This document shows, in pieces, positions 3,340 through 59,622 of a DNA stretch of 64,000 nt. A program made the position numbers and the translations under genes. The stretch covers positions 248,607 to 312,606 of the forward strand of contig JAKOZG010000004.1 of assembly GCA_029780115.1 (NCBI GenBank), written 5' to 3'. Position 1 is the stretch's first letter, and each line of letters starts with the position of its first letter. The notes beneath the pieces are model-generated. The model did not search any database. It was not told where the DNA came from and saw nothing but the letters and a program-made list of their open reading frames with translations. This DNA is from Thermotogota bacterium (GTDB lineage: Bacteria; Thermotogota; Thermotogae; Petrotogales; Petrotogaceae).

Positions 3340-3646
3340 TCACTCTCGACCTCCTTTTATTTGTGCATTATTTAACAATAAAAATTGAATTATTTATATC
3401 ACTTTTTAAACTTCTTTTCTAATCTTTATCCTACAATAATTTTATCAAAACTTTGAAGAGGAGTCAAGAACTTTTGCTTTTCTAGTGTATATAAGATATG
3501 TACATTTATAAAATTTTATTGTATTATTAGTTAATTTTATAAAATTAGTAAAATAGAGAGATCTATAAAAGTTCAAATAAAATGATATAATAAATAGTAA
3601 CTAACAGGCTTAAAAAACATGAAATGCAATAGATAAGGAGCATAAA

Positions 3647-13764: not shown

Positions 13765-14836
13765 CAACTATTCCTTGGGTGATATTTTAAGAGGAAAAAT
13801 TGACAGTTATAACATCGATCCTAATAGCAAAGAAAAAATTAATCAAGTTAAATTGATTTCGGAACTTAAACCTAACGAAGAAGTAGAAGTAGAAGGTAAA
13901 GTTATCAGTAAGAGGCTTCAAAAGACCAAATCTGATAAAGCATTTTTGCTAATCACTTTAGTGGATAAGAGTCAATCAATTAGGGCCGTTGATTGGTATT
14001 ATCCAGAAGAAAATAATAATAAAATCCAAGTGGGAGATGTCATAAAAGTAAAGGGGAAAACTGTTTTTTTTGAAAATAGGATCCAAATAAATGTTGTCAA
14101 CGATATTGATTCTATCGAGATATTAAATCCTCTTGAAGTTAATCCTGAAAAATATTTAAGAAATTCTCAAACTGAACTAATAGCTTTGACCCACAAATTA
14201 GAAAATTATATTTCACAAGTGAAAAATACAGGAATTAAAGCGCTGCTGAAATCAATATTTATAGAAAACAATTCTATTAGAGAAATGTTTTTAACTTCTC
14301 CAGCAGCCATCGAGGTACACCATGCATATCCTAATGGATTAATTGAACATAGTTTAAAGGTTACGGAATTATCTTTATGTTTATACGAAGCCTATTGTGA
14401 ACAAGATGTTTACATTAATAGAGATGTAATAATTGCTGGCTCCTTATTACACGATATAGGAAAAATTGAGGAATATATTATCACACCAACTGGCATAGAA
14501 AAAACTGAGCAAGGAGAATTGATGGGTCATATACCTTTAGGTGCAAAACTGATTTATGAAGAATCAAAAAAGATAGAAGAAAAAATTGAAAAAGAAGATA
14601 TCGAACATATCATTCATATAATTTTGTCTCATCATGGTGAAATTGAGTATGGAAGTCCAGTTGTACCTAAGACTTTGGAAGCAATGATAGTAAATTTCAG
14701 TGATAATATTGATTCTAAGATAGCTCGTGCAAAAGAAAACATTAAAAATACGCTTCAGATAAACGAAAACTCCACTTGGAGCGAATATGATAGAAGACTT
14801 GATAGAAAAATAAAAATTGAAAAATACACTGATTAA
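13757..14836 (+). CDS. yhaM: OB-fold + HD-domain 3'-5' exoribonuclease, YhaM-like.
   Basis: N-terminal OB-fold region. HD motifs HHAYPNGLIEHSL and LLHDIGK. Overlaps the alr stop by 8 nt. Confidence 0.7.
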   Translation: MCDNYSLGDILRGKIDSYNIDPNSKEKINQVKLISELKPNEEVEVEGKVISKRLQKTKSDKAFLLITLVDKSQSIRAVDWYYPEENNNKIQVGDVIKVKGKTVFFENRIQINVVNDIDSIEILNPLEVNPEKYLRNSQTELIALTHKLENYISQVKNTGIKALLKSIFIENNSIREMFLTSPAAIEVHHAYPNGLIEHSLKVTELSLCLYEAYCEQDVYINRDVIIAGSLLHDIGKIEEYIITPTGIEKTEQGELMGHIPLGAKLIYEESKKIEEKIEKEDIEHIIHIILSHHGEIEYGSPVVPKTLEAMIVNFSDNIDSKIARAKENIKNTLQINENSTWSEYDRRLDRKIKIEKYTD

Positions 14837-14868
14837 ACTTAGTTTTAGTTTTGCAGGGAGGTAAATGA

Positions 14869-17172: not shown

Positions 17173-17190
17173 GAAAAGGAGAAGTAAAAG

Positions 17191-18114
17191 GTGATAATTC
17201 CTATTGTTGCTGGTGGGAAATCTTTAGAACGAGAGGTTTCTTTTAGGAGTGCAAAAAACATTGAGAAGAGTCTTAGAAATCTAGGGTTTGATACTTTGAT
17301 TTTAGATCCAATTGACAAAGACTTTATAGACCAAATTAAAAACTATTCCTTTGTCTTTAATATTGTTCATGGTGATTTTGGTGAAGATGGGAGACTTCCA
17401 TCTCTTTTTGAAATTTTAGGTATTGATTATACATGTTCAAATCCTGAGACATCTTACATAACTTATGATAAGTATGTATTTTTTCTCTTTTTTAAAGATT
17501 ATTTAAAAATGCCTAAAACATTTCTGACAAACGATTTTATACCTCCTCCTTTTGAATTTCCTTTGGTTATCAAACCTAGAAAAAGTGGTTCAAGTAAAGG
17601 TGTTTATATAATACACGATATGAAGGAGTATAATCTCTATTTAAAACAAGACTTGTTAGATTTTGAAGATATTTTGATTCAGGAATACATAAAAGGAAAA
17701 GAGATCACCATTTCTTTTGTTCAGGAAGATGAAGAATTTATACTTTTACCTTTATTACAGATTATTCCGAAAAAAGAATTTTATGATTATGAAGCTAAGT
17801 ATACAACTGGTTTAACCGATTTAAAACCATGGCTATTTCCTCCAGAAAAAATAAGAAAACAAGTGGATAGAATTGGAGCGATAATTACAAATTTAATAGC
17901 CTTGAAAGATATGTTTAGAGTTGATGCAATCATAAACAATAATGATGATGTTTATGTATTAGAGGTTAATACAATACCTGGTATGACAGATTTAAGTGAC
18001 CTGCCAACTTCTGCAAAAGCTATTGATATAGAATTTGAAGACATCGTCAGGACTATCTTGAGCAACCATTCTATTTCTTTAAAAGAATCTAAGCAGAGAG
18101 AAAGTAGCTTATAA
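17191..18114 (+). CDS. ddl: D-alanine--D-alanine ligase.
   Basis: N-terminus IVAGGKSLEREVSFRSAKNIEKSLRNLGFD. ATP-grasp region. Length 307 aa. Confidence 0.85.
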   Translation: MIIPIVAGGKSLEREVSFRSAKNIEKSLRNLGFDTLILDPIDKDFIDQIKNYSFVFNIVHGDFGEDGRLPSLFEILGIDYTCSNPETSYITYDKYVFFLFFKDYLKMPKTFLTNDFIPPPFEFPLVIKPRKSGSSKGVYIIHDMKEYNLYLKQDLLDFEDILIQEYIKGKEITISFVQEDEEFILLPLLQIIPKKEFYDYEAKYTTGLTDLKPWLFPPEKIRKQVDRIGAIITNLIALKDMFRVDAIINNNDDVYVLEVNTIPGMTDLSDLPTSAKAIDIEFEDIVRTILSNHSISLKESKQRESSL

Positions 18115-18440
18115 GTTAATAAAATATCAAAAATCATGGTGAGAATTAGTTGAATAAGATGTCTGATAACTTTAAAATGGCAAGATAACGATCTGTTTTT
18201 AGAAGGCAGAGTACTAAATGAATAAAAATTTTTTTGGGATGTCAAAATAGAAAGGGTTAGGGAGCGAAGTTATTCTCTTTAGATATGGGTATTAAAGATG
18301 TCAAACGAATCTTTAGTTGATATAGAAGATTAAAAGGTAGTAGGTATTTTTTAAAAGACTAAATCTGAATCGTTCACAAACATATACTTTTGAATTTCTA
18401 AGACGCCATTAAACGAATAGTTTGTAAGGAGGAATAAAAA

Positions 18441-18974
18441 ATGCAGTTTCAGGGTACTACAATATTAGGCGTGAGAAGGAACGGTAAAACGGTTATAGGG
18501 GGAGATGGACAGGTTACTATGGGAGAAACTGTTTTTAAGGGAAACGCTAGAAAGGTGAGAAGAATAGGAGAAGGAAAAGTAATATCAGGTTTTGCGGGTT
18601 CTGTAGCAGATGCCTTAGCATTATATGAGAGGTTTGAAACAAAGTACAAATCTTCTAATGGAAATTTAATTAGGGCTGCCGTAGATCTAACAAAAGAATG
18701 GAGAATGGATAAGGTATTGAGACGATTAGAAGCTTTGTTACTTGTTGCGGATAAAGAAAATATGTTATTAATTTCTGGAAATGGTGAAGTTTTGGAACCC
18801 CAAGAAGATGCTATAGCTATAGGTTCTGGAGGACCTTATGCATATGCTGCTGCAATTGCACTTCTGAGGAATACTGACTTGGATGCTGAAGAGATAGTTA
18901 GGCAATCATTACAAATAGCAGGTCAAATTTGCATATATTCGAACGAAAATATTGTTTTGGAGATTATAGAATGA
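18441..18974 (+). CDS. hslV: ATP-dependent protease subunit HslV.
   Basis: N-terminal catalytic Thr context [21 protein letters not shown]. Strong SD AAGGAGG. Confidence 0.9.
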
Positions 18975-19552
18975 AAGAGTATGTATTTGCAGTACCTACA
19001 AATTTAGTTAATCAAATAATTATTACAAATACGAATTTCATTAAATTGAAATTTTCCGAATTTTCAAAGATCATAGAATATGGAGATTTTTTTGAAAGAA
19101 ATAAGATAGAAAATGACTCATCTTTTAAACAAATAATCCCATATACAGTTTTTAAAAATAGAGATAGCAAATATTTGGTATTAAAGAGAACCGAAAAACA
19201 AGGAGAAAAAAGGCTCCATAACATGATTTCTTTGGGCATCGGCGGTCATATAAACGAAAAAGATAAAGGGTTTTCAAAAGAACAAACATTTTTTAATGGA
19301 ATGGAAAGAGAAATAAACGAAGAAATATGGCTTTCTAATCCAGCAAAATATGTTTACAGAGGAATCATACGAGATAATTCTGAAGATGTTTCTAATGTAC
19401 ATTTAGGAATCCTTTTTGAAGGTTACGTGAAACATGCTGAAATAAAGGAAGTAGACAACTTTCACAGTGCTTGGCTCACAAAAAGTGAAATAGAAAAGTT
19501 AAAAGACGCAAAATTAGAAACTTGGGCTAAAATTGCTTTAGAAAATATATAA
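18971..19552 (+). CDS. Nudix hydrolase. The start overlaps the hslV stop (ATGA).
   Basis: Nudix-box-like [33 protein letters not shown]. Translational coupling to hslV. Confidence 0.6.
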
Positions 19553-19554
19553 TT

Positions 19555-19592
19555 CATCCCCTTTTTATGCTGAAGGGGATGTTTTTATTTTT
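19555..19592 (+). terminator. Intrinsic terminator (CATCCCCTT-loop-AAGGGGATG followed by TTTTTATTTTTATT).
   Basis: 9-bp GC-rich stem plus T-run immediately after the Nudix stop. Confidence 0.7.
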
Positions 19593-19622
19593 ATTGAATA
19601 ATTTTTATTTATGTAATAATTT

Positions 19623-20600
19623 TTACCCATTTTTCCCTACTTTTATTCTAGGATCTAAAAACCCATATATTAAGTCCAATAATATCATACCCACTATGTA
19701 TATTAGAGTGGTTATTGAGAGATTACCTAGAAGTACTGGTATATCGTTTTGTTGTACTGCAGCCCAATACAAAGTTCCCATGCCCGGCCAACTAAATATA
19801 CCTTCAAATATCAATGCACCAGAAAAAGAATTTAACAAAGATAAAACAGACATTGTTAATAAAGGGGGAGCGGAAGTTCTTAATGCATGTCCATATAAAA
19901 CGGATTTTTCAGGTATTCCACGAGCTCTAGCTGACATTATATAATCTTCTTGTAAATTCACTAAAACTATATTCCTTGTCAAATAAGCTCTTCCCCAGAA
20001 ACGTATAAGAACGAGTGTCATTACAGGTAAAAACATGTGGTACAACACATCCCCAACCCTTTTTAAAAAGGTTTCTGGAGGAGGAACACTGAGTATTCCA
20101 CTAGAGGGGAAAAAAGGAAAAATGAATGCGAAAAGCATGATCATAACTAATCCAACCCACCATGTAGGGAGCCCATAGCATACCATAGTGATTATTGAAG
20201 TTGTCTTATCCATGTATCCTCCAACTTTTTGTGCTTTTCTTATTCCTAACCGTATTCCAAGAAAAATATCTATAATTGTGGCCAAAGTAAAGAGAAGCAA
20301 AGTGTTTGGGACCCTTTCTAATACTATTTTAAAAACATCAGTTTCCCCTTTAAAAGACCGAATCACCATAGATTGTCCGTAATTAAAGGTTAGGGTATCA
20401 ATCCATCTAGAAAAAATCATGGGAATTATTGGTTCTTTTAAAAGATATATGTTACTCACTGCAAACATTATGTTAAAAAGAACCGAATATATAAAAATAA
20501 TTACAACATAAATTACAATTCCCATCAATATTCTTTTAAAAGCATATCTACAATACATTAAATTAACCACCTTCATATGGTTTAATACTACAAAATACAA
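19623..20600 (-). CDS. Orphan oligopeptide/oligosaccharide ABC permease, OppB-like paralog. Downstream of the opp operon terminator.
   Basis: About 80% identical to the OppB at 24098-25159, but lacks that protein's periplasmic loop of about 45 aa. The 5' coding DNA is also similar (ctacttttattctaggatc in both). Confidence 0.8.
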   Translation of the reverse strand: MYFVVLNHMKVVNLMYCRYAFKRILMGIVIYVVIIFIYSVLFNIMFAVSNIYLLKEPIIPMIFSRWIDTLTFNYGQSMVIRSFKGETDVFKIVLERVPNTLLLFTLATIIDIFLGIRLGIRKAQKVGGYMDKTTSIITMVCYGLPTWWVGLVMIMLFAFIFPFFPSSGILSVPPPETFLKRVGDVLYHMFLPVMTLVLIRFWGRAYLTRNIVLVNLQEDYIMSARARGIPEKSVLYGHALRTSAPPLLTMSVLSLLNSFSGALIFEGIFSWPGMGTLYWAAVQQNDIPVLLGNLSITTLIYIVGMILLDLIYGFLDPRIKVGKNG

Positions 20601-20655
20601 TAATAAGTTATTTTTTATGTCTCAAAAATGAGATAAGGATAACAACAAATTATTT

Positions 20656-20684
20656 TAAAAACCCCACAAAAGTGGGGTTTTTAT
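20656..20684. terminator. Bidirectional intrinsic terminator (AAACCCCAC-AAAA-GTGGGGTTT) between oppF and the orphan oppB paralog.
   Basis: 8-9-bp perfect stem. T-run on both strands. Confidence 0.65.
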
Positions 20685-20701
20685 TTAATATTTTGTACTT
20701 T

Positions 20702-21742
20702 CTAATTTATTTCTTTGTGTAGATAACAAGCCACATAGTGCCCGTCATTTGAATTTTCTTCAAGTTCTGGGTCATTATCACTTTCATAACAAATTGGTTT
20801 GGCGTACAAACATCTTGTATGGAATCTGCATCCTTGAGGTATATTAGAGGCTGATGGGATTTCTCCTTTAATAGGAATATCTTTAATAATATTTTCTTTA
20901 CCAGCGATTGGTTCAGGAACAGCAGCTATTAGGGCTTTTGTATACGGATGTAAAGGATTTTCTATAATTTCGTCAGAAGTACCTAATTCCACAATTCTTC
21001 CAAGATACATTACAGCAATTCTGTCACAAAAGTATCTCGCAGTAGAGAGATCATGAGTAATATAGAGATAAGTTAAATTCAATCTCTCTTGAACTTCTTT
21101 CATCATGTGCAAAATTTCTGCTCTTGTAGAAAGATCGATCATAGAAACGGGTTCGTCAGCTATAATTAGATCTGGAGAAAGCACTAAAGTTCTCGCGGTA
21201 GCTACTCTCTGCCTTTGGCCACCGCTTAACATATGTGGAAACCTATCTAAAAACTCGTCTGGAGGAGTCAATTTAACTTCTTCGAGAGCTTTTACAGCTA
21301 ATTGTTCCATTTCCGCGTGATTTTTGGTTTTTTCATGAATAATTAAAGGTTCGTACAATACGTCCCTAACCCTAAATCGTGGATTCATTGATGCATATGG
21401 ATCTTGAAAAACCATCTGGACATCTTCTTTATATTTCTTTATATCTTTGGCGGAAGATAAAGAAGAAATATCAACCCCCTTGAAGATAATCTGTCCCGCG
21501 GTTAGTTCTTCTAATTTCATAATTAAACGGCCAGTCGTAGTTTTTCCACATCCCGACTCACCAATGAGCGCAAAAATTTCTCCTTTTTTAATGTCAAAAC
21601 TTATGCCATCTACAGCTTTCACCCATTTTCTTTTGCCTTTAAAAACTTCTGCAATGCTTCTTCTTAGAGGAAACCATTTTTTTAAATTTTTTACACTTAA
21701 AATTATTTCATCATTCATCGTAACACCTCCAACATGCAACAA
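20702..21742 (-). CDS. oppF: Oligopeptide-type ABC transporter ATP-binding protein with C-terminal oligopeptide domain.
   Basis: Walker A GESGCGKTT. ABC signature LSGGQRQRV. Walker B IIADEP. Confidence 0.85.
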   Translation of the reverse strand: MLHVGGVTMNDEIILSVKNLKKWFPLRRSIAEVFKGKRKWVKAVDGISFDIKKGEIFALIGESGCGKTTTGRLIMKLEELTAGQIIFKGVDISSLSSAKDIKKYKEDVQMVFQDPYASMNPRFRVRDVLYEPLIIHEKTKNHAEMEQLAVKALEEVKLTPPDEFLDRFPHMLSGGQRQRVATARTLVLSPDLIIADEPVSMIDLSTRAEILHMMKEVQERLNLTYLYITHDLSTARYFCDRIAVMYLGRIVELGTSDEIIENPLHPYTKALIAAVPEPIAGKENIIKDIPIKGEIPSASNIPQGCRFHTRCLYAKPICYESDNDPELEENSNDGHYVACYLHKEIN

Positions 21743-28327: not shown

Positions 28328-29566
28328 TCAAAAATATTTTTTTTGATCTTTCCATAGTTGAACTAATCTTTCCTTTATCTTTTTTTCATAGCCAACCTCT
28401 TTCGGGTAAAAAAATTGGATTTTTTCGTAATTTTCTGGCATGTAACTTTCTCTAACAAAACCTCCATAATCATGCGGATATTTATAATCAACGCCAAATC
28501 CCTGCTTTACCATTTTTTTATTGAGTGGATTAATTAATTTTTTAGGGAGTTCAAAGTTAGTTTTGTTTATGAAATCTTTAGCCTTTGAATAAGCTAAGTA
28601 AGCAGAATTGGATTTTGGGCAAGCACATAAATATAAAGTTGCTTCAGATAAGGGAAGATAACATTCTGGATAACCAATATGCTCCGTAGCTATCATTGCT
28701 GATACAGCAATGTTTAGAGCGTTTGGATCTGCAAGACCAACATCTTCTGCAGCAAGAATAACCATTCTTCTAGCTATATATAGTGGATCTTCTCCACTTT
28801 CAAGCATATAAGCAAGATACAAAATGGCAGCATCTGGATCACTTCCCCTCACACTTTTAATGTATGCAGAAATAAAACTATATTTTGCATCTTTATTATA
28901 GCTTAATTTAAAACCTGTAAAATCAGAGAGAAATTGTAGATCTATTTCGTTTATAGAAGCTTCCTTAGCAGTTTCTATTAAATTGATTATTCTTCGAAGG
29001 TCTTTTCCAGCATAATCCACAAGAGCCTTTTTTGCCTCATCGGTTATATTTATATCTTTGTAATAATCTTTAATTCTTTCAAATAACATTTCATAATCTT
29101 TTTCCGATAATTCCTGTGTTTTAAAGATTAAAACCCTAGAAAGCAATGAGGGATTTATGCTTATAGCGGGGTTTTCTGTTGTAGCTCCAATTAGAGTAAG
29201 AGCTCCTGTTTCAATACTTAATAAAAGTGTATCTTGTTCAGCTTTGTTTAATCTGTGAATTTCATCAACAAATAAAAGTTTTGGCTTAGAAAAAAGATTA
29301 TCTTCTTTTTCAATTATACTTTTAATAGTTTTCTTACCCTCTAGAGCACCTGAAATAGTATATATATCATAAAAGTCTTTAATTTCGTTTAGTAAAGCTT
29401 TAACAATGGTAGATTTACCTGTTCCGGGTTCCCCATATATGATAAAAGACCTAACTTTTTTATTTTTTACCCAGGTCTTGAGTACTTCTTTCAATTTCTC
29501 ATTTCCTAAAATTTCATCAATGTTTTTGGGGCGTATTTTTTCATACAGAGGTTCTATACCATTCAA
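28328..29566 (-). CDS. rarA: Replication-associated recombination protein A (AAA+ ATPase RarA/MgsA).
   Basis: N-terminus PLYEKIRPKNIDEILGNE. Walker A GEPGTGKST. Walker B LFVDEIHRLNKAEQD. Confidence 0.85.
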   Translation of the reverse strand: MNGIEPLYEKIRPKNIDEILGNEKLKEVLKTWVKNKKVRSFIIYGEPGTGKSTIVKALLNEIKDFYDIYTISGALEGKKTIKSIIEKEDNLFSKPKLLFVDEIHRLNKAEQDTLLLSIETGALTLIGATTENPAISINPSLLSRVLIFKTQELSEKDYEMLFERIKDYYKDINITDEAKKALVDYAGKDLRRIINLIETAKEASINEIDLQFLSDFTGFKLSYNKDAKYSFISAYIKSVRGSDPDAAILYLAYMLESGEDPLYIARRMVILAAEDVGLADPNALNIAVSAMIATEHIGYPECYLPLSEATLYLCACPKSNSAYLAYSKAKDFINKTNFELPKKLINPLNKKMVKQGFGVDYKYPHDYGGFVRESYMPENYEKIQFFYPKEVGYEKKIKERLVQLWKDQKKYF

Positions 29567-30482
29567 TAGTATTTTTCACTCCTTCTTTTAAATTGAATGA
29601 AGGTTGCCAGTTTAAAATCCGTTTGGCTTTTTCATTTGAAAGCACACTTACCTCTAAATCTCCAGGCCTTTTCGGTTGATATATAGGAGATTTTTTGTAG
29701 TTAGTTTCTTCTTTCATTATTTTAAAAAGCTCGTTTATACTTGTTGCTTCATTACATGAGATATTTAATATTTCGTTATCAGCATTGTTTATGGATAAAA
29801 TGTTAGCTTCGACAACGTCATAAACATGAATAAAATCTCTTATCTGTTCCCCATTTCCGTAGATTTCAACTTCTTGGTTCTTTAGCATGTTTTCTGTGAA
29901 TATTGCAACTACACCTGCTTCGCCTTTAGGAGTTTGTTTAGGCCCATAAACATTAGAATATCTTAATATTGTATAATTCAGTGAAAATTCTTTTGAAAAA
30001 AATTTTATGTAATGTTCACAAGCTAATTTGGAAATAGCGTATGGACTTATTGGATTTGGACAAAAATCTTCCGTTGTAGGTATAGGAGCATTCTCCCCAT
30101 AGATTGCTCCACCAGATGAAGAAAATATTATCTTTTTAACTCCATATTTAGAAGATAAGGACAATATATTTAAAGTACCCATAATGTTTATTTCTGCATC
30201 TTTTTTTGGGTTATCGACAGATTCTGGTACAGAAATTTGAGCTGCTAGATGAAAAACATAGTCAAAATGATGAGTTTCAAAAATGATTTCTAGGACTTTG
30301 TAGTCCCTAATATCTTGATGATAAAATAAAGCTAAAGGAGACAACAAATTTATCTTACCAGTTGAAAGATCGTCCACTACCACTACTGAATGGCCTTCTT
30401 CTACTAATCTATCGACTAAATTTGAACCAATAAACCCAGCCCCACCGGTTACAAGTATTTTGTATTTGTTTTTGTCAGACAT
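29541..30482 (-). CDS. NAD-dependent epimerase/dehydratase (UDP-glucose 4-epimerase-like).
   Basis: Rossmann motif ILVTGGAGFIGSNL. Catalytic YAISK (YxxxK). Confidence 0.8.
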   Translation of the reverse strand: MSDKNKYKILVTGGAGFIGSNLVDRLVEEGHSVVVVDDLSTGKINLLSPLALFYHQDIRDYKVLEIIFETHHFDYVFHLAAQISVPESVDNPKKDAEINIMGTLNILSLSSKYGVKKIIFSSSGGAIYGENAPIPTTEDFCPNPISPYAISKLACEHYIKFFSKEFSLNYTILRYSNVYGPKQTPKGEAGVVAIFTENMLKNQEVEIYGNGEQIRDFIHVYDVVEANILSINNADNEILNISCNEATSINELFKIMKEETNYKKSPIYQPKRPGDLEVSVLSNEKAKRILNWQPSFNLKEGVKNTIEWYRTSV

Positions 30483-31025
30483 GATTACCTCCTATATTTT
30501 ATTGATTTGGTCACTTTAGAAATTTTAAAACATGCATTTATAAATTCAAAATCTTATTTTTCAAAAATCTTCATATCTAAAGTGCCTATTTATTAATTTT
30601 CTTCTCAAACATTATTATAACATTTATTTAATTTATTATAGAATTTATATTCTAATTAGATATTCGATCACTTCAAAGTTGAATCTAATCTAAATTATAT
30701 TTGAATCTCTGGATTTTAATCGAGGTGATGGAGGTGTGTCCTACCCCCCTAAACAACTATTAAAACTTAAGAATTTGTCTTCATTTTATCAGAACACAAA
30801 TTGGGGGATTGTACCTTTCTGCCATGTTTCCAAATTCGAAATCCTCACTTTAAGAAACAATTTTTTCTAAAAGATATAAACAATTAACACTGATTGAAAA
30901 TATTAATGTTAAAAATTTCTAGAAACAATACTAATTTTGTGTTATAATTACTTAATAATTGTTAATAATATCGGGAATTGTTATATGTAAAAAAAAAAAG
31001 AGTTTAATTTTTATCAATTTATATC

Positions 31026-47625: not shown

Positions 47626-47856
47626 ATGTTGATTTTAAACATCAATCAAGTATTATTGGCGCTGATAGAGACTAAACTTTAGAAGAGGAAAGACATTCTA
47701 AACATAGGATTTTGAATTTATGAAGTTTACATGAGCGGAGCCCTCCTCTTCACCTTCTGCATAAATACCAAAAAAAGCTAAAATTTGAAGCATAAATAGA
47801 ATTAAAGTTTCAGAATTTTTAAAGTGGATATTAATTTCATATTAGGAGGAAAATTT

Positions 47857-51467: not shown

Positions 51468-52925
51468 TTAAACAATTTTAATTGCATTAAATCTACAAGT
51501 AGAATAACAAGAACCACACTTAATACATTTTGTTTGGTCTATAAAATGAGGTTTCCTCAATTCGCCACTTATAGCTTGTGTAGGGCAAACTCTTGCACAA
51601 GCAGTGCATCCTTGACAGTTTTGTGGAATAACTTCATATCTGATTAAATTCTTACAAATACCTGCAGGACATACCCTGTCTAAGATATGAGCTTTGTACT
51701 CATCTTCAAAATACTTAAAAGTAGAAAGAACAGGGTTAGGTGCTGTTTGTCCCAATCCACATAACGAAGAATTTTTTATAACATTGGAGAGAGAAATCAT
51801 TCTTTCCAAGTCCTCTAAATGGGCGTTTCCAGAAGTAATTTTTTCTAATATTTCTAACAGCCTGACATTACCAATTCTACAAGTTGTGCATTTTCCACAA
51901 GATTCATCAACTGTGAATTGAAGATAAAATTTTGCCACATCTACCATACATGTATCTTCGTCCATGACAATCATTCCGCCAGATCCCATCATTGATCCTA
52001 AATTTTGAAGACTATCATAATCTATTGGTGTATCGAGATATTCAATAGGAATACAACCGCCGGAAGGTCCCCCAGTCTGGACAGCCTTAAATTTTTTGTC
52101 TCCCTTAATTCCACCACCAATATCAAAAATAATTTCCCTTAAGGTTGTTCCCATGGGAACTTCTACTAAACCAACATTTTTTACGTCTCCAGCTAAAGCG
52201 AAAACTTTTGTGCCAGGGGAATTTTTAGTACCATATTGTCTGAACCAATCTGGGCCATTAAGTATTATAGGGGCAATATTAGCGAAAGTCTCAACATTAT
52301 TTATTAAAGTAGGTTTTCCCCATAAACCACTTGTAGAAGGAAATGGTGGCTTATTTCTAGGTTCGCCTCGTGATCCTTCAATCGAATGAATTAAAGCTGT
52401 TTCTTCTCCACATACAAAGGCACCAGCACCCAACCTAATTTCTATGTCAAAAGAAAAACTGGTTCCTAGAATATTTTCTCCAAGCAATCCAAATTCTTTT
52501 GCCTGACAAATAGCATTTTTTAATCTTTCAACTGCTAGAGGATATTCTGCTCTGATATAAATAATACCTTTTTTTGCTCCTACGGCATAACCTCCAATAG
52601 TCATTCCTTCAAGAACGGAATGAGGATCTCCCTCCAAAATAGATCTGTCCATAAAAGCACCAGGGTCTCCTTCGTCGGCGTTGCATATAACATATTTTTC
52701 ATCGCCTTTTGCTTGCATAGTAAATTTCCATTTTAAACCAGTTGGAAAACCCCCTCCACCTCTGCCTCGTAAGTTAGAAGAAGAAATAATATCAATCACT
52801 TCTTCCCTCGTCGACTCAAGAGCTTTTGCTAGCGCTAAATAACCATCGTTTTTTAAATAATCTTCTATATTTTCCGGATTAATATTTCCAGCGTTTCGTA
52901 ATACAATACGTATTTGTTCACACAT
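51468..52925 (-). CDS. hydB: Hydrogenase NAD(P)H-binding flavoprotein subunit (NuoF-like, with C-terminal 2x[4Fe-4S] ferredoxin domain).
   Basis: NuoF-like FMN/NADH motifs [15 protein letters not shown] and [13 protein letters not shown]-terminal CxxCxxCxxxCP. SD GGAGGT 8 nt before the ATG. Confidence 0.9.
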
Positions 52926-53049
52926 TATTTTACCTCCACTTATATAACTAATTCTATTTTTGATATTATGAAATGCTAGTAGCTAATTTATTATTTAGAT
53001 AAATTCTAAATTTTTAACGCAATTTGCTTTCTTTCTTCTTTTTAAAAGG

Positions 53050-53100
53050 GAAAGTAAGAGGGCTGCCGCCCTTGAACCCGCTTAAATTTAAAACTCAGCT
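53050..53100 (-). repeat. Copy A of a conserved intergenic element. Minus-strand core TTTAAATTTAAGCGGGTTCAAGGGCGGCAGCCCTC.
   Basis: Near-identical core to copies at 56700-56790, 59105-59165 and 59195-59262. Same orientation relative to the flanking minus-strand genes. Confidence 0.8.
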
Positions 53101-53112
53101 TCTAAAGATTGA

Positions 53113-53490
53113 CTACAAAACTATCTTATGAGTTTCATGGACAATAAGTTCTTTCACTATTTTTCCTTCCATTAAATGATTATAAACAATATCATGAACC
53201 TTAGATTTTGTTACAAAACCATATAATATAGGTTCTTTTCCTGGTTCATTAACTTCAACGGTAGGTTCGGCATAACAATATCCCAAGCATCCTGTTTTTA
53301 TTACTTCTACGTTTTCTAGTTTAGTTTCATTAATAACTTTTAATAACTCATTAAAAGTTTCCTCTGCCCCAGAAGAGATTCCACAAGTTCCTAAGGCTAC
53401 CTTCAAATAAGTAGTTTTATTTTCACTATCATTTTTTTTAAGAGTAGCTACCAAATTTCTTAATTCATCGATACTATTTAACTTAGACAC
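53113..53490 (-). CDS. Thioredoxin-like ferredoxin-fold small protein. Possibly a detached N-terminal domain of HydB, since HydB homologues in related taxa are about 140 aa longer.
   Basis: 125 aa with NuoE-like CGIS...GCLGYCYAEP pattern, but only 3 Cys. Lies between hydC and hydB on the same strand. Confidence 0.55.
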   Translation of the reverse strand: MSKLNSIDELRNLVATLKKNDSENKTTYLKVALGTCGISSGAEETFNELLKVINETKLENVEVIKTGCLGYCYAEPTVEVNEPGKEPILYGFVTKSKVHDIVYNHLMEGKIVKELIVHETHKIVL

Positions 53491-53630
53491 AAAAGTTCCC
53501 TCCTATTTTATAAAGGTTTTAGATTAACATTTTTGAAAAAAGGTTCTTCATTGGGTAAGATTTCGCTGTGTTACATTTTAATTTCAAGGTATTATTATTC
53601 ATAAAATCTATCTTCTTCTAAGGTTTTTAT

Positions 53631-54137
53631 CTATTGATTTTCTTTACTTGTATATTCTCTAATAATTTTTCTAACATCTGAAACTTTTAGTCTCCCGTAA
53701 GTATCTTCACCAATTTTTACAACTGGAGCTAGACCACACGCACCCAAACATCTAACTGGATGAATTGAGAATAAACCATCTTCTGTAACTTCCTCTGGTT
53801 CAATATTTAAAAATTTTTTAAATTCATCATAAATTAAGTTTGCCCCCGCAACATAACAAGCGGTCCCCAGACAAATATTAATAGGATATTTTCCACGAGG
53901 TTTTGTAGAGAAAAAATTATAAAATGTAACTACTCCATATACTCTAGAGACGTGTATTTTTAGTTTCTGTGCAATGAGCTTCTGAACTTCTGTTGGAATA
54001 TAACCTATATTTTCTTGTGCTTTATGAAGAATTTGAATGAGCAAGCTTTTTCTTTGTTCATCGGTATAACCCTCTACATCTATTGATTCAAGATATTCTC
54101 GGAATGTTTCTAATTTGTGTTCATAAACTTTTTCCAT
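53631..54137 (-). CDS. hydC: Hydrogenase NuoE-like [2Fe-2S] subunit.
   Basis: NuoE motifs ICLGTACYVAG and VRCLGACGLAPVV. Length 168 aa. Confidence 0.85.
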   Translation of the reverse strand: MEKVYEHKLETFREYLESIDVEGYTDEQRKSLLIQILHKAQENIGYIPTEVQKLIAQKLKIHVSRVYGVVTFYNFFSTKPRGKYPINICLGTACYVAGANLIYDEFKKFLNIEPEEVTEDGLFSIHPVRCLGACGLAPVVKIGEDTYGRLKVSDVRKIIREYTSKENQ

Positions 54138-54348
54138 GAAAAGTTATCCTCCTTACTTAAAATAATAAGTTAAAAAATTCACTTAAAAAATATATAAATT
54201 TTCAAAAATTCTATCATACTTTTAAATAAAAAAGTTTAAAAAAATCTGAAAAGCTTATTACACTTTTTACTAAATATTATCTACTAAATTTTATGTATAT
54301 TTCAATTGAATACAAAATTATTTTAAAATTTTTATTAATAACTATTTT

Positions 54349-55494
54349 TTAATAATTGATCCAAACACAACCTTTGTTTGTACTTTCCACACATTTTTCT
54401 ATAAAACGCATGCCTTGAACACCATCTTCTACAGTTGGAAAATCCAAATCTGCAGAAGTTAAAATCTCACCTTGTTTTTTCTTATGAATTGCATTAACAA
54501 ATTTATCATAGATTCTAGCAAAAGCTTCTACATATCCTTCTTGATGGCCACCTGGGGCAACATATTCTGTTTTTATAGAATCATTTATCTGATCGCTTCC
54601 TCGAGATATAATTTTAAATGGTTCATCGATTGTCGATAATTTTAGATAATTTGCATGTTCTTGAGACCATTCTATAGAACCTTTGGTACCGTATATACCA
54701 AAATTTAAGTTGTTTTCATGTCCAACGGCAATTTGTGATGTCCAATAGATACCTTTGGAATTATTATCATAATTTACAAGAATGGAGGCATTATCGTCAA
54801 GTCTATCTTCTTCTATGAATTTATCCATTCTAGCACATAAAGAATTTATCTTTAGACCGCTAACAAAAGATATCAAATTTTCAACATGAACTCCGATGTC
54901 TGCAACACAATTTGACAATCCAGAAATATTAGGATCTGATCTCCATTCATGACGTGGGATTTTACCCTTATAAGGAACTTTTGCCATCCATTCACTTATA
55001 TACTGTGCATTTACAAATCGCACCTCACCAATTTTTCCGCTTTTTACTAGTTCTCTTGCATATCTAACCATTGAATAACCAGTATATGCATAAGAAACTG
55101 CGAAAAGTAAATCTTTTTCTTGTGCTAATTTTTGTAATTCTAATGCCTGATCCAACGTAACTGTTAAAGGTTTTTCGCACATGACATTTATTCCATTTTC
55201 CAGAAAACTTTTAGCAATCTCATAATGAGAATTGTTAGGAGTCACTATAACAACGAAATCTATTTTATCAGGTCTTTTTCCTTCTTCTTCTGCCATTTCA
55301 GCGTAATTTTTATATAATCTTTTTTCATCAAGCTTTAATTCTTTACCTGTAGCCAATGTATTTTTAATATTTCTGGAAAAAGAACCAGCTACTAATTCTG
55401 CCTTCCCATGAAGATTTAAAGCTTTTCGATGAATAGTTCCTATCTGAGATCCTCTTCCTCCACCAACCATTCCATAGATAATCTTTTTAGCCAT
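54349..55494 (-). CDS. Gfo/Idh/MocA-family NAD(P)-dependent oxidoreductase. Start at M8 of the ORF, preceded by GGAGG.
   Basis: N-terminal Rossmann YGMVGGGRGSQIG. EKPL motif CEKPLT. Paralog of the upstream gene. Confidence 0.8.
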   Translation of the reverse strand: MAKKIIYGMVGGGRGSQIGTIHRKALNLHGKAELVAGSFSRNIKNTLATGKELKLDEKRLYKNYAEMAEEEGKRPDKIDFVVIVTPNNSHYEIAKSFLENGINVMCEKPLTVTLDQALELQKLAQEKDLLFAVSYAYTGYSMVRYARELVKSGKIGEVRFVNAQYISEWMAKVPYKGKIPRHEWRSDPNISGLSNCVADIGVHVENLISFVSGLKINSLCARMDKFIEEDRLDDNASILVNYDNNSKGIYWTSQIAVGHENNLNFGIYGTKGSIEWSQEHANYLKLSTIDEPFKIISRGSDQINDSIKTEYVAPGGHQEGYVEAFARIYDKFVNAIHKKKQGEILTSADLDFPTVEDGVQGMRFIEKCVESTNKGCVWINY

Positions 55495-55511
55495 GTTATG
55501 GCCTCCTTCAA

Positions 55512-56606
55512 TCAAAATTTAACCCAAGAACTTCCTTTTTTAGTACTTTCTATACATTTTTCTATAAATTTCATGCCTCTTACACCAGCGATAACACTTT
55601 GAAAGTTCGAGTTATTGTTATTAATTTTCTTACCATTCTTTTTATTTATTAGATCTGTTATAAAAAGAGAATAAGTGTTTTTGAAGCCTGCATTTGTACC
55701 TTCTAAAATTTCTTCTTCTTTTTTTATTAGTTTTAGTGAATCTTCAAAGAAAATTTTTATAGTGTTTGCTTCTTGAAGATCCCATTTTAAAGTTCCTTTG
55801 GAACCATAAAGTGAAAAGTTAAAATTGTTTTTTTCTCCTATGGCTATCTGAGACATAAAATAAATTCCTCTTGAACCATCTTTAAAATTTACCATAACTA
55901 TCGAATTATCTTCCAGCTTTCTTGATTTTACAAATGCATCTAATATTGCGCACAACGATTCGATTTCCTTTTCTGTTAAGTAAGAAATCATATTTTCCAC
56001 ATGACTTCCAATGTCAGCAGTTGTGTTAGCCAAACCACTTTGAGAAGGATCTAAACGCCACTGAGCTTGTTTATTTTCATTTTCCACAGGTTCGGCCAGC
56101 CATCCTTGAAGATACTGAGCATTTATCATTCTGATAGTTCCTATTTCGCCAGATTGAATCATTTTTTTTGCTTCTTGAATAATAGGAAAACCAGTATAAG
56201 AGTAAGTTACGCAGAATAGTAAATCCTGTTTATTTGCTAAATCTTTAAGTTCTTCGGCTTCTTTTAGAGAAGTAGTTAAAGGTTTTTCACAAACAACGTT
56301 TATTCCATTTTCTAGAAAAGCTTTAGCTATTTTGTAATGAGAGACATTTGGCGTTGCAATAACCACAAAATCTATCTTTGGCTTCTTCTTACTTTCTACT
56401 CTAATCATTTCTTGATAATCTTTGTACAGCCTTTCTCTTCTTATTTTCCACTCTTTGCCTGTCTGAAGTGTTTTCTTAAAATCTCTTGAAAAGCAACCAC
56501 TAACAATTTTTGCCCTTCCATCTAGTAGGATAGCGTTTCTGTGAGATTCTCCAATCATAGAATCTATAGCTCCGCCTACCATTCCGTAGGTTAATTGAGT
56601 ATCCAT
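55512..56606 (-). CDS. Gfo/Idh/MocA-family NAD(P)-dependent oxidoreductase. Start at M13 of the ORF, preceded by AGGAGG.
   Basis: YGMVGGAIDSMIG. CEKPLT. About 45% identical to the downstream paralog. Confidence 0.8.
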   Translation of the reverse strand: MDTQLTYGMVGGAIDSMIGESHRNAILLDGRAKIVSGCFSRDFKKTLQTGKEWKIRRERLYKDYQEMIRVESKKKPKIDFVVIATPNVSHYKIAKAFLENGINVVCEKPLTTSLKEAEELKDLANKQDLLFCVTYSYTGFPIIQEAKKMIQSGEIGTIRMINAQYLQGWLAEPVENENKQAQWRLDPSQSGLANTTADIGSHVENMISYLTEKEIESLCAILDAFVKSRKLEDNSIVMVNFKDGSRGIYFMSQIAIGEKNNFNFSLYGSKGTLKWDLQEANTIKIFFEDSLKLIKKEEEILEGTNAGFKNTYSLFITDLINKKNGKKINNNNSNFQSVIAGVRGMKFIEKCIESTKKGSSWVKF

Positions 56607-56699
56607 TGGTTTTTTCCTCCTAAGAATTGATGTTTTATACACTTTGGAAATTCAAAAATCTTTATTTTTAAAGGGTAATAATTGATGAGTTCTTTAACA

Positions 56700-56790
56700 A
56701 ATTCGGTACTTGTACCGAGAGAAGATAAAGGGCTGCCGCCCTTATACCCGTATAAATCTAAAACCTTATTTTTGAAAATCTTTGTTTCTA
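56700..56790 (-). repeat. Copy B of the conserved intergenic element: extended prefix AAAGATTTTCAAAAATAAGGTTTTAG, core, and suffix CGGTACAAGTACCGAATTTG.
   Basis: Shares the GGGCGGCAGCCC hairpin core with copies A, C and D. Shares the prefix with C and the GGTAC...GTACCGAAT suffix with D. Confidence 0.8.
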
Positions 56791-56856
56791 AAGTGTGTAT
56801 TTAGGTTAGTTTAATTATATAATATTTTATAGTGAAGGAAAAATATTTCTACTCCA

Positions 56857-57774
56857 TTAATTTATTTTATTGATTTCATAAGGTGTTTCTTGATATACAT
56901 AATAGTTTAACCAATTGCTAAACAATAAATAAGCGTGGCTTCTCCATTTTACTATTGGTTCCCCATTGGGATCATCATTAGGAAAATAATTTTTTGGAAG
57001 GGGTATATCTAGCCCTTTATTTAAATCTCTTTCATACTCTTTTTTCAAAATTACTGGATCGTATTCCGGATGGCCGGTTACAAATACTTGTCTTCCATCT
57101 ACTTTTTCTATTAAGTATACTCCAGCGTCTACTGATTCAGAAATAATATTTAATTCAGTAATTGGTTCTATATCTTCTCTTTTTATTTCTGTATGTCTTG
57201 AATGAGGTGCCCAAAATATGTCATCAAAACCCCTTACCAATTTACAACTTATATCGTTTACTGAATGCTCAAAAACGCCAAATATTTTTTTATTAACAGG
57301 ATATTTATTTATACCATAGTATAAATATAATCCTGCTTGGGCTCCCCAACAAAGGTGTAAAGTTGAAAAAACATTATTTTTAGACCATTTCATAACTTCT
57401 TTTAATTCTTCCCAATAATCTACTTCTTCAAAATCTAAAGTTTCAACAGGAGCGCCTGTAATAATCAATCCATCAATTTTTTTGTATTTAATTTCAGAAA
57501 ACGTTGTATAAAAAGTCCTAAGGTATTCTTCTGAAGTATTTTTTGATTTGTGAGAGATCATTCTTAATAAAGAAACATTTACTTGTAAAGGTGTGTTTCC
57601 TATAAGTCTAAGGATTTGAGTTTCTGTGACAATTTTTGTGGGCATTAAGTTTAAGATTATAATTTCTAAAGGCCTAATGTCCTGATGTATAGCTCTTTCC
57701 TGAGACATTACGAAAACATTTTCTTTTTTTAATATTTCCCCAGCGGGTAGATTCGCTGGAATGTTTATGGGCAT
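56857..57774 (-). CDS. metA: Homoserine O-acyltransferase (MetA family).
   Basis: [31 protein letters not shown]-terminal hallmark. Length 305 aa. Overlaps metY by 10 nt. Confidence 0.85.
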
Positions 57775-59081
57775 TTACTTCCATGCTCCCTTTGAGAGGT
57801 AGTAGCTTTGGTTAATGATAGGTTTATATCTTCTATTAAATCCTCTATATCTTCTAAACCCACAGATAGTCGAATCATATCCTCTGTAACGCCAGAAGCC
57901 AGCTGTTCCTCTTTAGTCAGTTGTTGGTGAGTAGTAGAAGCTGGATGAATAGCCAAAGATCTGGCATCTCCTACATTGGCAACGTGCTGAAAAAGTTCTA
58001 AATTTTCTATAAATTTTCTTCCTGCTTCTAACCCCCCCTTCAACCCGAAAGTTAAGATTCCTCCAAATCCGTTTTTCAAAAAATTCTTTGAATTATTATA
58101 AGTCTTATGATCCTCTAGTCCTGGATAATTAACCCAGTTAACCCTTGGATCATTTTGTAAATAATGAGCTATTTGTAAAGCGTTAAAACAATGCTTTTGC
58201 ATCCTTAGACTTAAGGTCTCTAAGCCTTGTAATATCAAAAAGGAATTAAAAGGGCTGATTGTGCACCCTATATCTCTTAAAAATTGAGATCTAGCTTTTT
58301 GTATATAAGCGGCATTTCCAAATTTTTCGAAAAAGTTTACACCATGATATGATGGGTCTGGTTCACTTAACTCAGGAAATTTTCCATTGTTCCAATTAAA
58401 GTTACCACTGTCTACAATGATTCCACCAATACAAGTACCATGCCCGTTCATGTACTTGGTTAAAGAATGAATTACTATATCGGCGCCAAATTCAAAAGGT
58501 TTGCATAAATAAGGTGTTGCAAACGTATTATCGACAATTAACGGAATTCCATTTGTATGTGCTATTTTAGATATTTCTTCAAAATTTGGTACAGACAATT
58601 CTGGGTTGCCTATGGTTTCAACATACACTAACTTTGTTTTATTAGATATTTTTTCTTGTAAATCTTGAAGATCTGTAACATGAAAAGAATGTGTTGTTAT
58701 GCCCAGTCTTCCTAATGTATTTTTAAATAGAGTGAAGGTACCTCCATATAGAGAGCTGCTGCACAAAATTTCATCTCCTGCTTTTGTAATATTTAAAACA
58801 GCGATAGTTTCAGCAGCTTGACCAGAGGCGGTAGCCAAAGCTCCTACTCCTCCCTCCAACGCGGCAACACGCTTTTCCAAAACTTCTGTAGTTGGATTTT
58901 CCATTCTTGTATAAATATTTCCACTCTCTTCTAAAGAAAAAAGTCTAACCGCATGATTGGTATCTTTAAATTTGTAAGAGGATGTTTGATAGATCGGAAC
59001 AACATTTGAACCGGTTGTAAGATCTGAATTGTATCCGGCATGAATCATTAAAGTATCGAATTTGTAATTCTTTTTTGTCAT
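57765..59081 (-). CDS. metY: O-acetylhomoserine aminocarboxypropyltransferase (sulfhydrylase), PLP-dependent.
   Basis: PLP-lysine context [12 protein letters not shown]. Cys/Met gamma-synthase family. SD AGGAGGT 7 nt upstream. Confidence 0.85.
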
Positions 59082-59104
59082 ATTTGTACCTCCTTAAAAT
59101 TTGG

Positions 59105-59165
59105 TGAGGGCTACCGCCCTTTAACCCATTTAAATTAAAAACCTTATTTTAAAAATCTTTATTTC
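59105..59165 (-). repeat. Copy C of the conserved intergenic element. It lies immediately upstream of the metY SD.
   Basis: Minus strand: AAAGATTTTTAAAATAAGGTTTTTAATTTAAATGGGTTAAAGGGCGGTAGCCCTCACC. Confidence 0.8.
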
Positions 59166-59194
59166 AAAATAGCATTAATTAGTTCTTTTTTACA

Positions 59195-59262
59195 GATTCG
59201 GTACCCGTAACAAGAAGAGTGAAGAGCTACCGCCCTTTAACCCGTTTAAATTTACAAATCAT
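59195..59262 (-). repeat. Copy D of the conserved intergenic element. The core is slightly degenerate and it carries the GGTACCGAAT suffix.
   Basis: Minus strand: TTTAAACGGGTTAAAGGGCGGTAGCTCTTCACTCTTCTTGTTACGGGTACCGAATCTG. Confidence 0.75.
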
Positions 59263-59288
59263 AAGTTTTTTTGAGTAATAAAAAAATA

Positions 59289-59318
59289 AAAACCTCTTTT
59301 TAAGATGAGAAGAGGTTT
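59289..59318 (-). terminator. Expression-platform terminator of the SAM-I riboswitch: AAACCTCTT-loop-AAGAGGTTT followed by TTTTATTTTTTT on the minus strand.
   Basis: 9-bp stem plus U-run about 20 nt downstream of the aptamer P1 3' strand. Confidence 0.75.
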
Positions 59319-59335
59319 TTATTATTGTTTTTCCT

Positions 59336-59450
59336 CTCCTTATCTCTCAGAATTATTTCTGCAGGATTTGGCACCTTCGCATAATTTGATTTATGCAGGT
59401 TGCCGTGGCTTCATAGGGCCAGTCCCTCCACCACTCTTGATAAGGCGAAA
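59336..59450 (-). ncRNA. SAM-I (S-box) riboswitch aptamer in the metY-metA leader.
   Basis: Minus strand reads CTTATCAAGAGTGGTGGAGGGACTGGCCCTATGAAGCCACGGCAACC...GAAGGTGCCAAATCCTGCAGA...CTGAGAGATAAG. This is a near-textbook match to the S-box consensus, including the P1 helix CTTATC/GATAAG. It is a GC-rich island in AT-rich DNA. Confidence 0.9.
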
Positions 59451-59622
59451 ATTATTAAATTAGGAAAATTCTAACATAATTTATAATTTTTGTCAAGTCA
59501 ACTTATAAAATACGTAACAACTTAAAAAATGTTAACTTTATTTAGAAAAAGTGTTATTTTAAAATGTTATAATTACATAAAATTAATATTTCAGGTAATA
59601 TAAATGTGAAAGGAGTTTTATA

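Follow-up and report, generated by a model that had tools for sequence, protein, structure and literature searches.

The DNA analysed here, called the window, is a 64,000-nt stretch of a Thermotogota genome (contig JAKOZG010000004.1, positions 248,607 to 312,606) whose metA and hslV products have identical matches among proteins labelled Defluviitoga sp. On its minus strand lies a cluster of methionine genes (metY, which follows an S-adenosylmethionine (SAM) riboswitch, and metA), Gfo/Idh/MocA oxidoreductase genes and hydrogenase (hyd) genes, and the spacers of this cluster hold four copies, A to D, of a repeat with a G+C-rich hairpin core. The repeat belongs to a lineage-restricted family of noncoding, modular repeats of Defluviitoga and a Petrotoga-like relative. 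A preliminary description of this DNA had reported four near-identical copies on one strand, and this was borne out. The core AAGGGCGGYAGCCCT, allowing up to two mismatches, is found at 53059-53073, 56729-56743, 59107-59121 and 59223-59237, always on the minus strand and with one mismatch in the last, while shuffled window sequence gives 0 matches. A fifth match is copy B's own palindrome read on the plus strand. In addition, a repeat search of the window places all four sites in one 4-copy family, and a profile made from the copies recovers them with E-values of 2e-35 (B), 5e-26 (D), 6e-23 (A) and 5e-16 (C).

Anatomy of the repeat unit

The anatomy was derived from an alignment of long and short forms. 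Units range from 80 to 225 nt, with a full unit of ~220 nt. The earlier size of 35-90 nt was too small, as became apparent because a second Defluviitoga strain (L036) holds copy B as a perfect tandem of 2 x 120 nt; in the window, copies A and B span 52935-53131 and 56630-56804, including short inverted ends. A full unit begins with the left end, (G)GTACTTTAGAAAT, and an A/T-rich 5′ module (TTTTCAAAAAATAAG, TTTTGAATTTAAA). This is followed by CGGGTY, by hairpin 1, which is GGGC and GCCC around 3-4 nt of the form G..A, and by a CT-rich tract. The 3′ part comprises hairpin 2, (C)GGTAC-AA-GTACC(G), a 3′ module of ~100 nt with an internal GGGAGG, and, as the inverse complement of the left end, the right end AATTTCTAAAGTRGGTAAA. 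These inverted ends, (T)ACTTTAGAAAT and ATTTCTAAAGT(A), are 10-12 nt long and occur at corresponding positions in 9 of 13 units, with shuffle support that is modest for each unit (0-29 of 500).

The units are noncoding, and open reading frames (ORFs) that cross them are chance ones. They vary by loss of internal modules, the Defluviitoga copies being internal-deletion forms, and by head-to-tail amplification of whole units. Within the window, the 5′ module common to B and C and the 3′ module common to B and D, both described before, are real by reading of the sequence. That no copy exists elsewhere in the 64 kb holds solely for the well-preserved hairpin core: profile searches add diverged members at 47675-47836, 18198-18401 and 30510-30590, which brings the window to seven element loci (Table 1). 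The cores are near-identical in pairs, A and B having the loop GGCA and C and D the loop GGTA.

A mini-ORF of 4-6 codons (ATG..TAA; MIIFKK, MRIF, MKIFEK) lies behind AGG at the left end of most Petrotoga-like copies and of one window copy, with examples at L047 650-690, L057 9480-9520 and window 30560-30590. It was rejected as a conserved feature; among the window copies that have the region, only 30510-30590 contains one.

Table 1. Copies of the repeat in the window, the metY leader, and the sites at which right-end spacing and cross-phylum copies were read
Feature	Position	Strand	Parts and scores	Site
Copy A	52935..53131	-	profile E = 1.6e-23; 52.8 bits; hairpin 1 at 53059-53073; hairpin 2 not clear; right end degenerate	between stop of 125-aa, presumably HndB-like, ORF (53113-53490) and hydB start (52925)
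Copy B	56630..56804	-	most complete unit of window; E = 2e-35; fold z = -3.4; left end CACACTTTAGAAAC, 5′ module, CGGGTA-T-AAGGGCGGCAGCCCTT (56728-56743), CT tract, hairpin 2 CGGTACAAGTACCG (56703-56718), shortened 3′ module, right end GAATTTCCAAAGTG	right end 24 nt before GGAGG of first Gfo/Idh/MocA gene
Copy D	59176..59277	-	lacks 5′ module; hairpin 1 GGGCGGTAGCTC with one mismatch; hairpin 2 weakened	begins directly after SAM-riboswitch terminator
Copy C	59084..59172	-	5′ module and core; truncated just after hairpin 1 (59107-59121)	runs into metY Shine-Dalgarno sequence
Diverged copy E	47675..47836	+	E = 2.7e-21; hairpin 1 GAGCGGAGCCC; right end GAATTTTTAAAGTG	upstream of GH20 gene (start 47857); right end 23 nt before GGAGG
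Mini copy	30510..30590	-	left end GGCACTTTAGATAT, 5′ module, right end AAATTTCTAAAGTG; hairpins absent	24 nt before GGAGG of 313-aa ORF (29541-30482)
Degenerate long-form copy	18198..18401	+	E = 7.7e-9	upstream of hslV (18441)
metY leader context, outside element	59277..59496	-	promoter-like site TTGACA-17-TAGAAT at 59468-59496
SAM-I riboswitch	59337-59446	-	100 bits; terminator 59277-59331
Right-end spacing sites, window	30482, 47857, 56606
Right-end spacing site, L045	5516
Right-end spacing site, L057	9956
Right-end spacing sites, L047	1271, 8653, 12195, 15727, 17068, 20269
Cross-phylum examples	L029 3839-3934; L014 4530-4625; L028 312-407; L017 1690-1861

Orientation and spacing

The units occupy spacers, which run either between two cistrons or from a promoter or terminator to the Shine-Dalgarno sequence that follows. 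When orthologous sites are counted a single time, 17 independent loci remain, and the element is in sense to the downstream gene at 16 of them, the exception being L047 15835-16056 (L047 is Petrotoga sp. 9PWA.NaAc.5.4). The distance to the gene is also fixed: in all 11 gene-proximal copies that keep the right end, its motif AATTTYYAAAGT(R) lies 22-25 nt from the Shine-Dalgarno sequence GGAGG. The genes downstream are unrelated and include metY, Gfo, hydB, hydC, GH20, hslV, glpX, ackA, SDR, a Bmp lipoprotein, glgP and a substrate-binding protein. GC skew follows the gene strand, and no replication direction is derivable in the window.

Sigma-70-like boxes are found upstream of several left ends, and in the window as well as in L047 a riboswitch terminator precedes the element. 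For these reasons, the element is predicted to be transcribed within leaders and intercistronic RNA. At metY, the strong promoter-like site, the riboswitch and its terminator are all upstream of D and C, which places both copies inside the 5′ untranslated region (UTR). Here, the earlier account was correct, with D and C lying between the terminator and the metY Shine-Dalgarno sequence and amounting to ~1.5 units of a 116-nt period.

Differences between strains and species

Relatives were sampled in ~20-kb windows around two marker genes. The window locus recurs in many anaerobic-digester assemblies. In L045, a sister Defluviitoga with a metA that is 88% identical, the element is present at the orthologous metY, Gfo and hydB sites, and an additional long copy lies upstream of hydC; at that site the window holds just a right-end-like remnant. 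Tandem arrays occur as well. A digester contig (L044) has a four-unit array with a period of 74-81 nt, and L047 has units of ~220 nt, four of them in an array upstream of glpX. Beyond Defluviitoga, the element was found in two regions of a Petrotoga-like genome and in a related metagenome contig (L047, L057, L058). L047 contains nine profile stretches in 21 kb plus a mini copy at metY, and L057 contains five, including three tandem units at hslV (9469-9973) that are orthologous to the single degenerate one of the window. The density in the DNA sampled is ~1 occupied locus per 9 kb for the window and ~1 per 4 kb for the Petrotoga-like genome. No copy was found in the 20-kb samples of Petrotoga sp. 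9PW.55.5.1, another Petrotoga group, Geotoga and Oceanotoga, and the profile search gave no matches in L048, L049, L051, L053-L055, L059 and L060.

Single sites differ in the same way. The window has a single unit at the copy B site, where L036 carries a near-identical pair and L045 a pair that is old and diverged. In both L036 and L045 copy A no longer has an intact hairpin 1, although hydB is intact there. In the metY leader, Defluviitoga has D and C, L047 has a mini element and L048 lacks the element, which is also absent at hslV of L053, L059 and L060 and at glpX of L036. With copy number and integrity varying between strains and species, the element behaves as a dispensable repeat would and not as a required regulator.

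The L036 locus has further peculiarities. An IS200/IS605 insertion sequence (IS) encoding Y1 TnpA and TnpB lies near glpX (2706-4180). The locus is a mosaic, with 99.1% identity to the window over metY-metA and 96.9% over gfo-hyd (L036 5653-12427 versus 12409-21317), and the spacer upstream of hydB matches the L045 lineage. Gene calling breaks its dnaE and hydA into several short ORFs, possibly as a result of assembly errors.

In scans of viral contigs the core had no match, and the A/T-rich right end gave chance matches only. Several viral contigs of one IMG/VR sample (3300045988; L063-L070) share an identical 24-nt match to the right-end motif alone, and this is likely to be phage sequence that is conserved and has nothing to do with the element. 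No description of the repeat was found in the literature. A RepRanger analysis covered D. tunisiensis, and the accessible portions of its text and supplements give no matching motif.

Structure and covariation

Pairs were counted on a model-guided alignment (A5) of 23 distinct copies, which was used because MAFFT put hairpin 1 out of register where loops of 3 and 4 nt met. Hairpin 1 is conserved, with 97% of cells paired, three G-U cells and two double changes from CG to UA. For hairpin 2, the paired fraction of 70% is an underestimate, given that the L044 copies are one column out of register in A5, and compensatory changes are few (GGTAC/GTACC versus GCTAC/GTAGC versus TGGTA/TACCA). The covariation score beat all slid controls and all but 1 of 500 shuffles. 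Loops of 3 to 10 nt in hairpin 1 speak for a hairpin and against a double-stranded operator of fixed form. Copy B is predicted to fold into a terminal stem plus two hairpins (z = -3.4), whereas the fold of the full Petrotoga-like unit is no better than that of shuffles (z = -0.9).

A terminator scan flags hairpin 1 (5-6 pairs). The tails are interrupted by C (TATCTTCTCT, CTTACTTTCC) and the copies lie inside operons; judged from sequence, hairpin 1 would be only a weak terminator look-alike. Rfam searches of the window, the L047 arrays and the cross-phylum loci described below, at gathering and E-value thresholds, returned only the SAM riboswitch and tRNAs, which agrees with the preliminary description, where the element could not be matched to a riboswitch class.

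The CT-rich tract after hairpin 1, CCUCUCCUUCUUCCUU (L047 700-790 and equivalents in long units), resembles an anti-Shine-Dalgarno sequence. In long units it is predicted to pair with the internal GGGAGG ~70 nt downstream, and in short units the real Shine-Dalgarno sequence could be within its reach (in L044, CUUCCUU with AAGGAGG).

The hairpin core in other phyla

A core common to elements of other phyla was not foreseen in the preliminary description. The 21-mer GGGTWNAAGGGCGGYAGCCCT has 35 matches in a genome contig collection (loci L001-L035), in Hyphomicrobiaceae/Devosia (Alphaproteobacteria), rumen Clostridia, Chloroflexota, Spirochaetota, Lentisphaeria and Verrucomicrobiota, and the common core is GC-GGGTT-N-AAGGGC-GGCA-GCCCTT. 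These matches are not mere coincidences in G+C-rich genomes, as they had seemed at first. In nearly all 35, an A-run and purine tract are followed by a variable hairpin (hairpin A) ending in GC and then by the 21-mer; 3′ of it stands T, often with a mini-hairpin of the GCGAAGC type. Hairpin A has compensatory changes at 7 of 8 pairs, its base pair being a conserved U-G in 24 of 31 copies, and the closing pair of the core hairpin also covaries (GC 11, UA 8, CG 2).

The shared 21-mer was the search key, which means that identity in those columns is partly by construction, and by our estimate ~4-25 isolated chance matches would be expected from the size of the collection. Support that is independent of the key comes from the C before GGGTT, the A-run and purine tract, the loops of unselected copies and the existence of multi-copy families. 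A model made from the cross-phylum sequences finds unselected copies in the same loci that keep GC-GGGT(N) and GGGC-G..A-GCCC. Their loops (GGCA, GATA, GGA) and one GGGT/ACCC variant are also those of Defluviitoga and the Petrotoga-like genome. Model R2, which contains non-Thermotogae copies only, recovers copies A, B, D and C with E-values of 7e-8 to 2.5e-5, and the window has no other match to it.

The cross-phylum elements are multi-copy within genomes and stand beside unrelated genes; among their loci there is no common neighbouring protein and no nearby TnpA/TnpB. One Clostridia copy lies antisense in a groES-groEL spacer, and elsewhere many copies are in sense, with a Shine-Dalgarno sequence just downstream. 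Units of the Alphaproteobacteria have two arms, a length of ~150 nt and the ends TTCGCTTCGCGA and TCGCGAAGCGAA; a search of a plasmid collection with an alphaproteobacterial copy gave no match.

Set against the Defluviitoga repeat, these elements are alike in CGGGTT-N-AAGGGC-GGCA-GCCCT(T), in the A-run and purine tract on the 5′ side, in having a hairpin before and often after the core, and in the loops and the GGGT/ACCC compensatory variant. They differ in hairpin A, which is strong, G+C-rich and covarying in the other phyla, whereas Defluviitoga keeps a vestigial TTTAAATTTAA; in the third hairpin, which is GCGAAGC-like there and GGTAC-AA-GTACC here; and in the outer ends. It is a tentative proposal, which we hold to be possible and less than probable, that the CGGGTT and GGGC-GNNA-GCCC module with its neighbouring hairpins is an undescribed cross-phylum superfamily that acts as a single strand, either as the site of a mobilising enzyme or as a host-bound leader or processing signal. 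The Defluviitoga form would then be an A/T-rich derivative tied to translation starts, and this would explain both the sense-only orientation and the 22-25-nt spacing.

What kind of element is it?

It is fairly probable that the repeat is an element like a MITE (miniature inverted-repeat transposable element), a repetitive extragenic palindrome (REP) or BOX, copied by some activity and/or by recombination between copies and carried passively in transcripts. The preliminary description had offered a miniature dispersed repeat of the MITE or REP type, tolerated inside operons in one orientation, as one of its interpretations, and this has been supported and extended by the copies elsewhere, the inverted ends and the tandems that vary between strains. 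The small size without coding capacity and the terminal inverted repeats are those of a MITE. Such an element would behave as a selfish or structural repeat and would spread by a mobilising activity and/or recombination between copies. It would be co-transcribed into 5′ UTRs and intercistronic RNA, where its stem-loops would have at most generic effects, for example mRNA end protection, a processing site or weak attenuation. It would neither sense a ligand nor define a hyd/met regulon. CGGGTT together with GGGC-GNNA-GCCC would be a constrained module, common to the multi-copy elements of other phyla and most likely recognised in single-stranded form by whatever propagates or handles them, the candidates being an enzyme that mobilises the elements and a host factor that binds RNA or DNA.

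Several observations weigh against this reading. The loci examined contain neither a transposase nor an autonomous partner with the ends of the element. The one comparison of a filled and an empty site (L045 hydC versus the window) revealed a duplicated right-end-like 19-mer, which looks unlike a classic target-site duplication; TA flanks are possible but uninformative in DNA of 31% G+C, and the inverted ends are short at 10-12 nt. The near-strict sense orientation and the fixed spacing of 22-25 nt are unexpected for a randomly inserting MITE, and they hint at selection for function or at targeted or recombinational copying. In particular, the spacing needs targeted insertion, recombinational copying anchored on the right end, or selection; that the right end serves as such an anchor is suggested by the L045 hydC site. 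Lastly, the window cores have stayed near-identical in pairs while the four orthologous L045 copies all differ, which suggests gene conversion or lineage-specific constraint or selection.

The orientation and spacing rules are also what keep alive the main rival, in which the element is a portable 5′-leader module that acts at the RNA level. Here, a conserved RNA-binding protein, a ribosome component or an RNase would bind a structure composed of a terminal stem, hairpins 1 and 2 and a CU-rich, anti-Shine-Dalgarno-like tract, and would tune the stability or translation of many genes, with tandem arrays multiplying the effect. It is in keeping with the sense orientation at 16 of 17 loci, the fixed distance from the gene, the position in 5′ UTRs downstream of riboswitch terminators and the many sense copies just upstream of Shine-Dalgarno sequences in other phyla. 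Some features of the sequence also speak for RNA: G-U pairs on the sense strand are tolerated (10 G-U versus 3 A-C cells), the end stem has C/T variation facing an invariant G, and pairing of the CU-rich CCUUCCUU is possible with AAGGAGG and, in long units, also with the internal GGGAGG. Even so, a leader of this type is unlikely. The copies are dispensable and variable: hairpin 1 at hydB is gone in L036 and L045, copy B comes as one or two units, and at metY neither D nor C has any right end. Furthermore, the downstream genes are unrelated, the groES-groEL copy of the rumen Clostridia is antisense to its operon, and the fold of the full unit is no better than that of shuffles.

Single-stranded recognition could instead take place on DNA. 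In this case, the element would resemble a REP or a palindrome-associated transposable element (PATE) and would be mobilised as single-stranded DNA by an HUH (Y1) enzyme, either of the REP-associated tyrosine transposase (RAYT) type or of the IS200/IS605 TnpA type, with hairpin 1 and the conserved GC-GGGT at its 5′ foot as the recognition and cleavage module. The invariant stem, closed by C:G around GNA/GNNA loops (GGCA, GATA, GGA), would suit such an enzyme, as would the GCGAAGC-type mini-hairpins that flank copies in other phyla, and the U-G (T-G) pair that 24 of 31 copies conserve at the base of hairpin A implies that one strand matters. Presence in many phyla would fit an enzyme and site that move horizontally as a pair, and an IS200/IS605 copy is present in one Defluviitoga strain (L036). 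This mechanism is nonetheless improbable, since the GTAG-type tetranucleotide is absent, no Y1 gene adjoins any copy at the loci examined, and the ends of the L036 IS605 are dissimilar to the element. The element also has inverted ends, which IS200/IS605 derivatives lack, and its orientations in the window follow the gene and not one replication direction, unless an origin or terminus lies inside the window.

Two specific forms of this idea were tried and rejected. The L036 IS605 is not the parent, as the profile finds no similarity between it and the element, and derivation as an IS200/IS605-type PATE does not agree with the inverted ends and the dissimilar IS605.

A portable promoter or transcription-factor site on double-stranded DNA is very unlikely. 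The right end would be the promoter and the palindromes CGGTACNNGTACCG and GGGCN4GCCC would be operators, for which one may cite the fixed distance to the gene start, the perfect palindrome CGGTAC-AA-GTACCG and weak sigma-70-like matches inside units. These matches are at shuffle level (7 versus 5.1; 41 versus 30), and separate sigma-70-like boxes already stand upstream of several copies. Moreover, a promoter after the SAM riboswitch terminator of L047 would bypass the riboswitch, and the 3 to 10 nt of the hairpin 1 loop are unlike a fixed operator. The right end itself was rejected as a sigma-70 promoter because it lacks a consistent, properly spaced -35/-10 pair.

Finally, the clustering of copies within 6.2 kb, one set of them beside a known riboswitch, gives next to no credence to a new riboswitch or ligand-sensing leader of hydrogenase and methionine genes, or to a recent duplication confined to the cluster, given the further copies in the window and in other genomes, the old and diverged L045 orthologues, the variable modules, the unrelated genes and the lack of an Rfam match. 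Both had been raised in the preliminary description, the former as a regulatory RNA or protein-binding site that co-regulates the two gene groups. The duplication is contradicted by these copies. The co-regulation is unsupported, and a gene-specific cis-acting RNA was rejected, as there is no coherent gene set and no consistent retention at orthologous sites.

Relation to known repeats

One comparison is with BOX elements of Streptococcus pneumoniae (boxA-boxB(n)-boxC) and similar modular repeats of intergenic DNA. Both they and the present repeat are short, noncoding and modular, with complementary ends and variable internal modules, and both are intergenic near gene starts, co-transcribed and without a transposase of their own. 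The sequences are unrelated, however, and in Defluviitoga and its relative it is whole units and not just an internal box that are in tandem, nearly always in sense and with the 3′ end at a fixed Shine-Dalgarno distance.

Correia elements or Neisseria miniature insertion sequences (NEMIS), enterobacterial repetitive intergenic consensus (ERIC) sequences or intergenic repeat units (IRU), and repeat units of pneumococcus (RUP) are similar in the length of 80-225 nt, the terminal inverted repeats, the intergenic dispersal, the long hairpin formed when transcribed, and the filled and empty sites between strains. In contrast to these MITEs, the ends here are just 10-12 nt, neither a target-site duplication nor a parent IS has been shown, and the tandem arrays, strict orientation and fixed Shine-Dalgarno spacing are atypical.

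With REPs, their bacterial interspersed mosaic elements (BIMEs) and REP doublets forming hairpins (REPINs), the repeat shares a G+C-rich imperfect palindrome in an A/T-rich spacer, placement inside operons, clustered or tandem mosaics and presumed effects on mRNA stability, and its alphaproteobacterial relatives are two-armed as REPINs are. It differs in the absence of a GTAG foot, the foot of the hairpin being CGGGTT(N)AA, in that no RAYT was seen, and in a much longer unit with inverted ends of its own.

Neighbouring genes

Copy A does sit between a 125-aa ORF (53113-53490, minus strand) and hydB, as described before; the ORF itself is located between NuoE-like (53631-54137) and NuoF-like (51468-52925) hydrogenase subunit genes. 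The accompanying proposal, that the copy separates what is one fused gene in related organisms, did not hold: the family of the ORF, which is presumably HndB-like (Hnd hydrogenase), consists almost exclusively of stand-alone proteins of 110-140 aa, and copy A therefore did not split hydB. The functional relevance that had been attached to this position falls with it.

Two adjacent, paralogous Gfo/Idh/MocA oxidoreductase genes (54349-55515 and 55512-56642, minus strand) lie between metA and the hydrogenase genes. The pair shows internal direct repeats with 73-77% identity, and the Petrotoga-like locus L047 has no such arrangement. A TATAAT-containing stretch, TTCACTATAAAATATTATATAATTA (window 56806-56850, minus strand; L045 2570-2610), lies just upstream of copy B; the two Defluviitoga lineages have conserved it better than the repeat element itself, and it may be an internal promoter for the Gfo genes.

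Implications

Defluviitoga is a dominant hydrolytic bacterium of thermophilic biogas reactors, and many of its 5′ UTRs and operon spacers are filled by this repeat family. A false lead is removed, in that neither a new riboswitch nor a hyd/met regulator is supported here. The repeat lengthens the metY leader behind the SAM riboswitch to ~200 nt, and the differences from strain to strain make it a possible strain marker. The sense orientation and fixed distance to the ribosome-binding site are not explained by ordinary MITE biology. If the cross-phylum link holds, the 23-nt hairpin core, which has no Rfam family, would be a widespread recognition motif.

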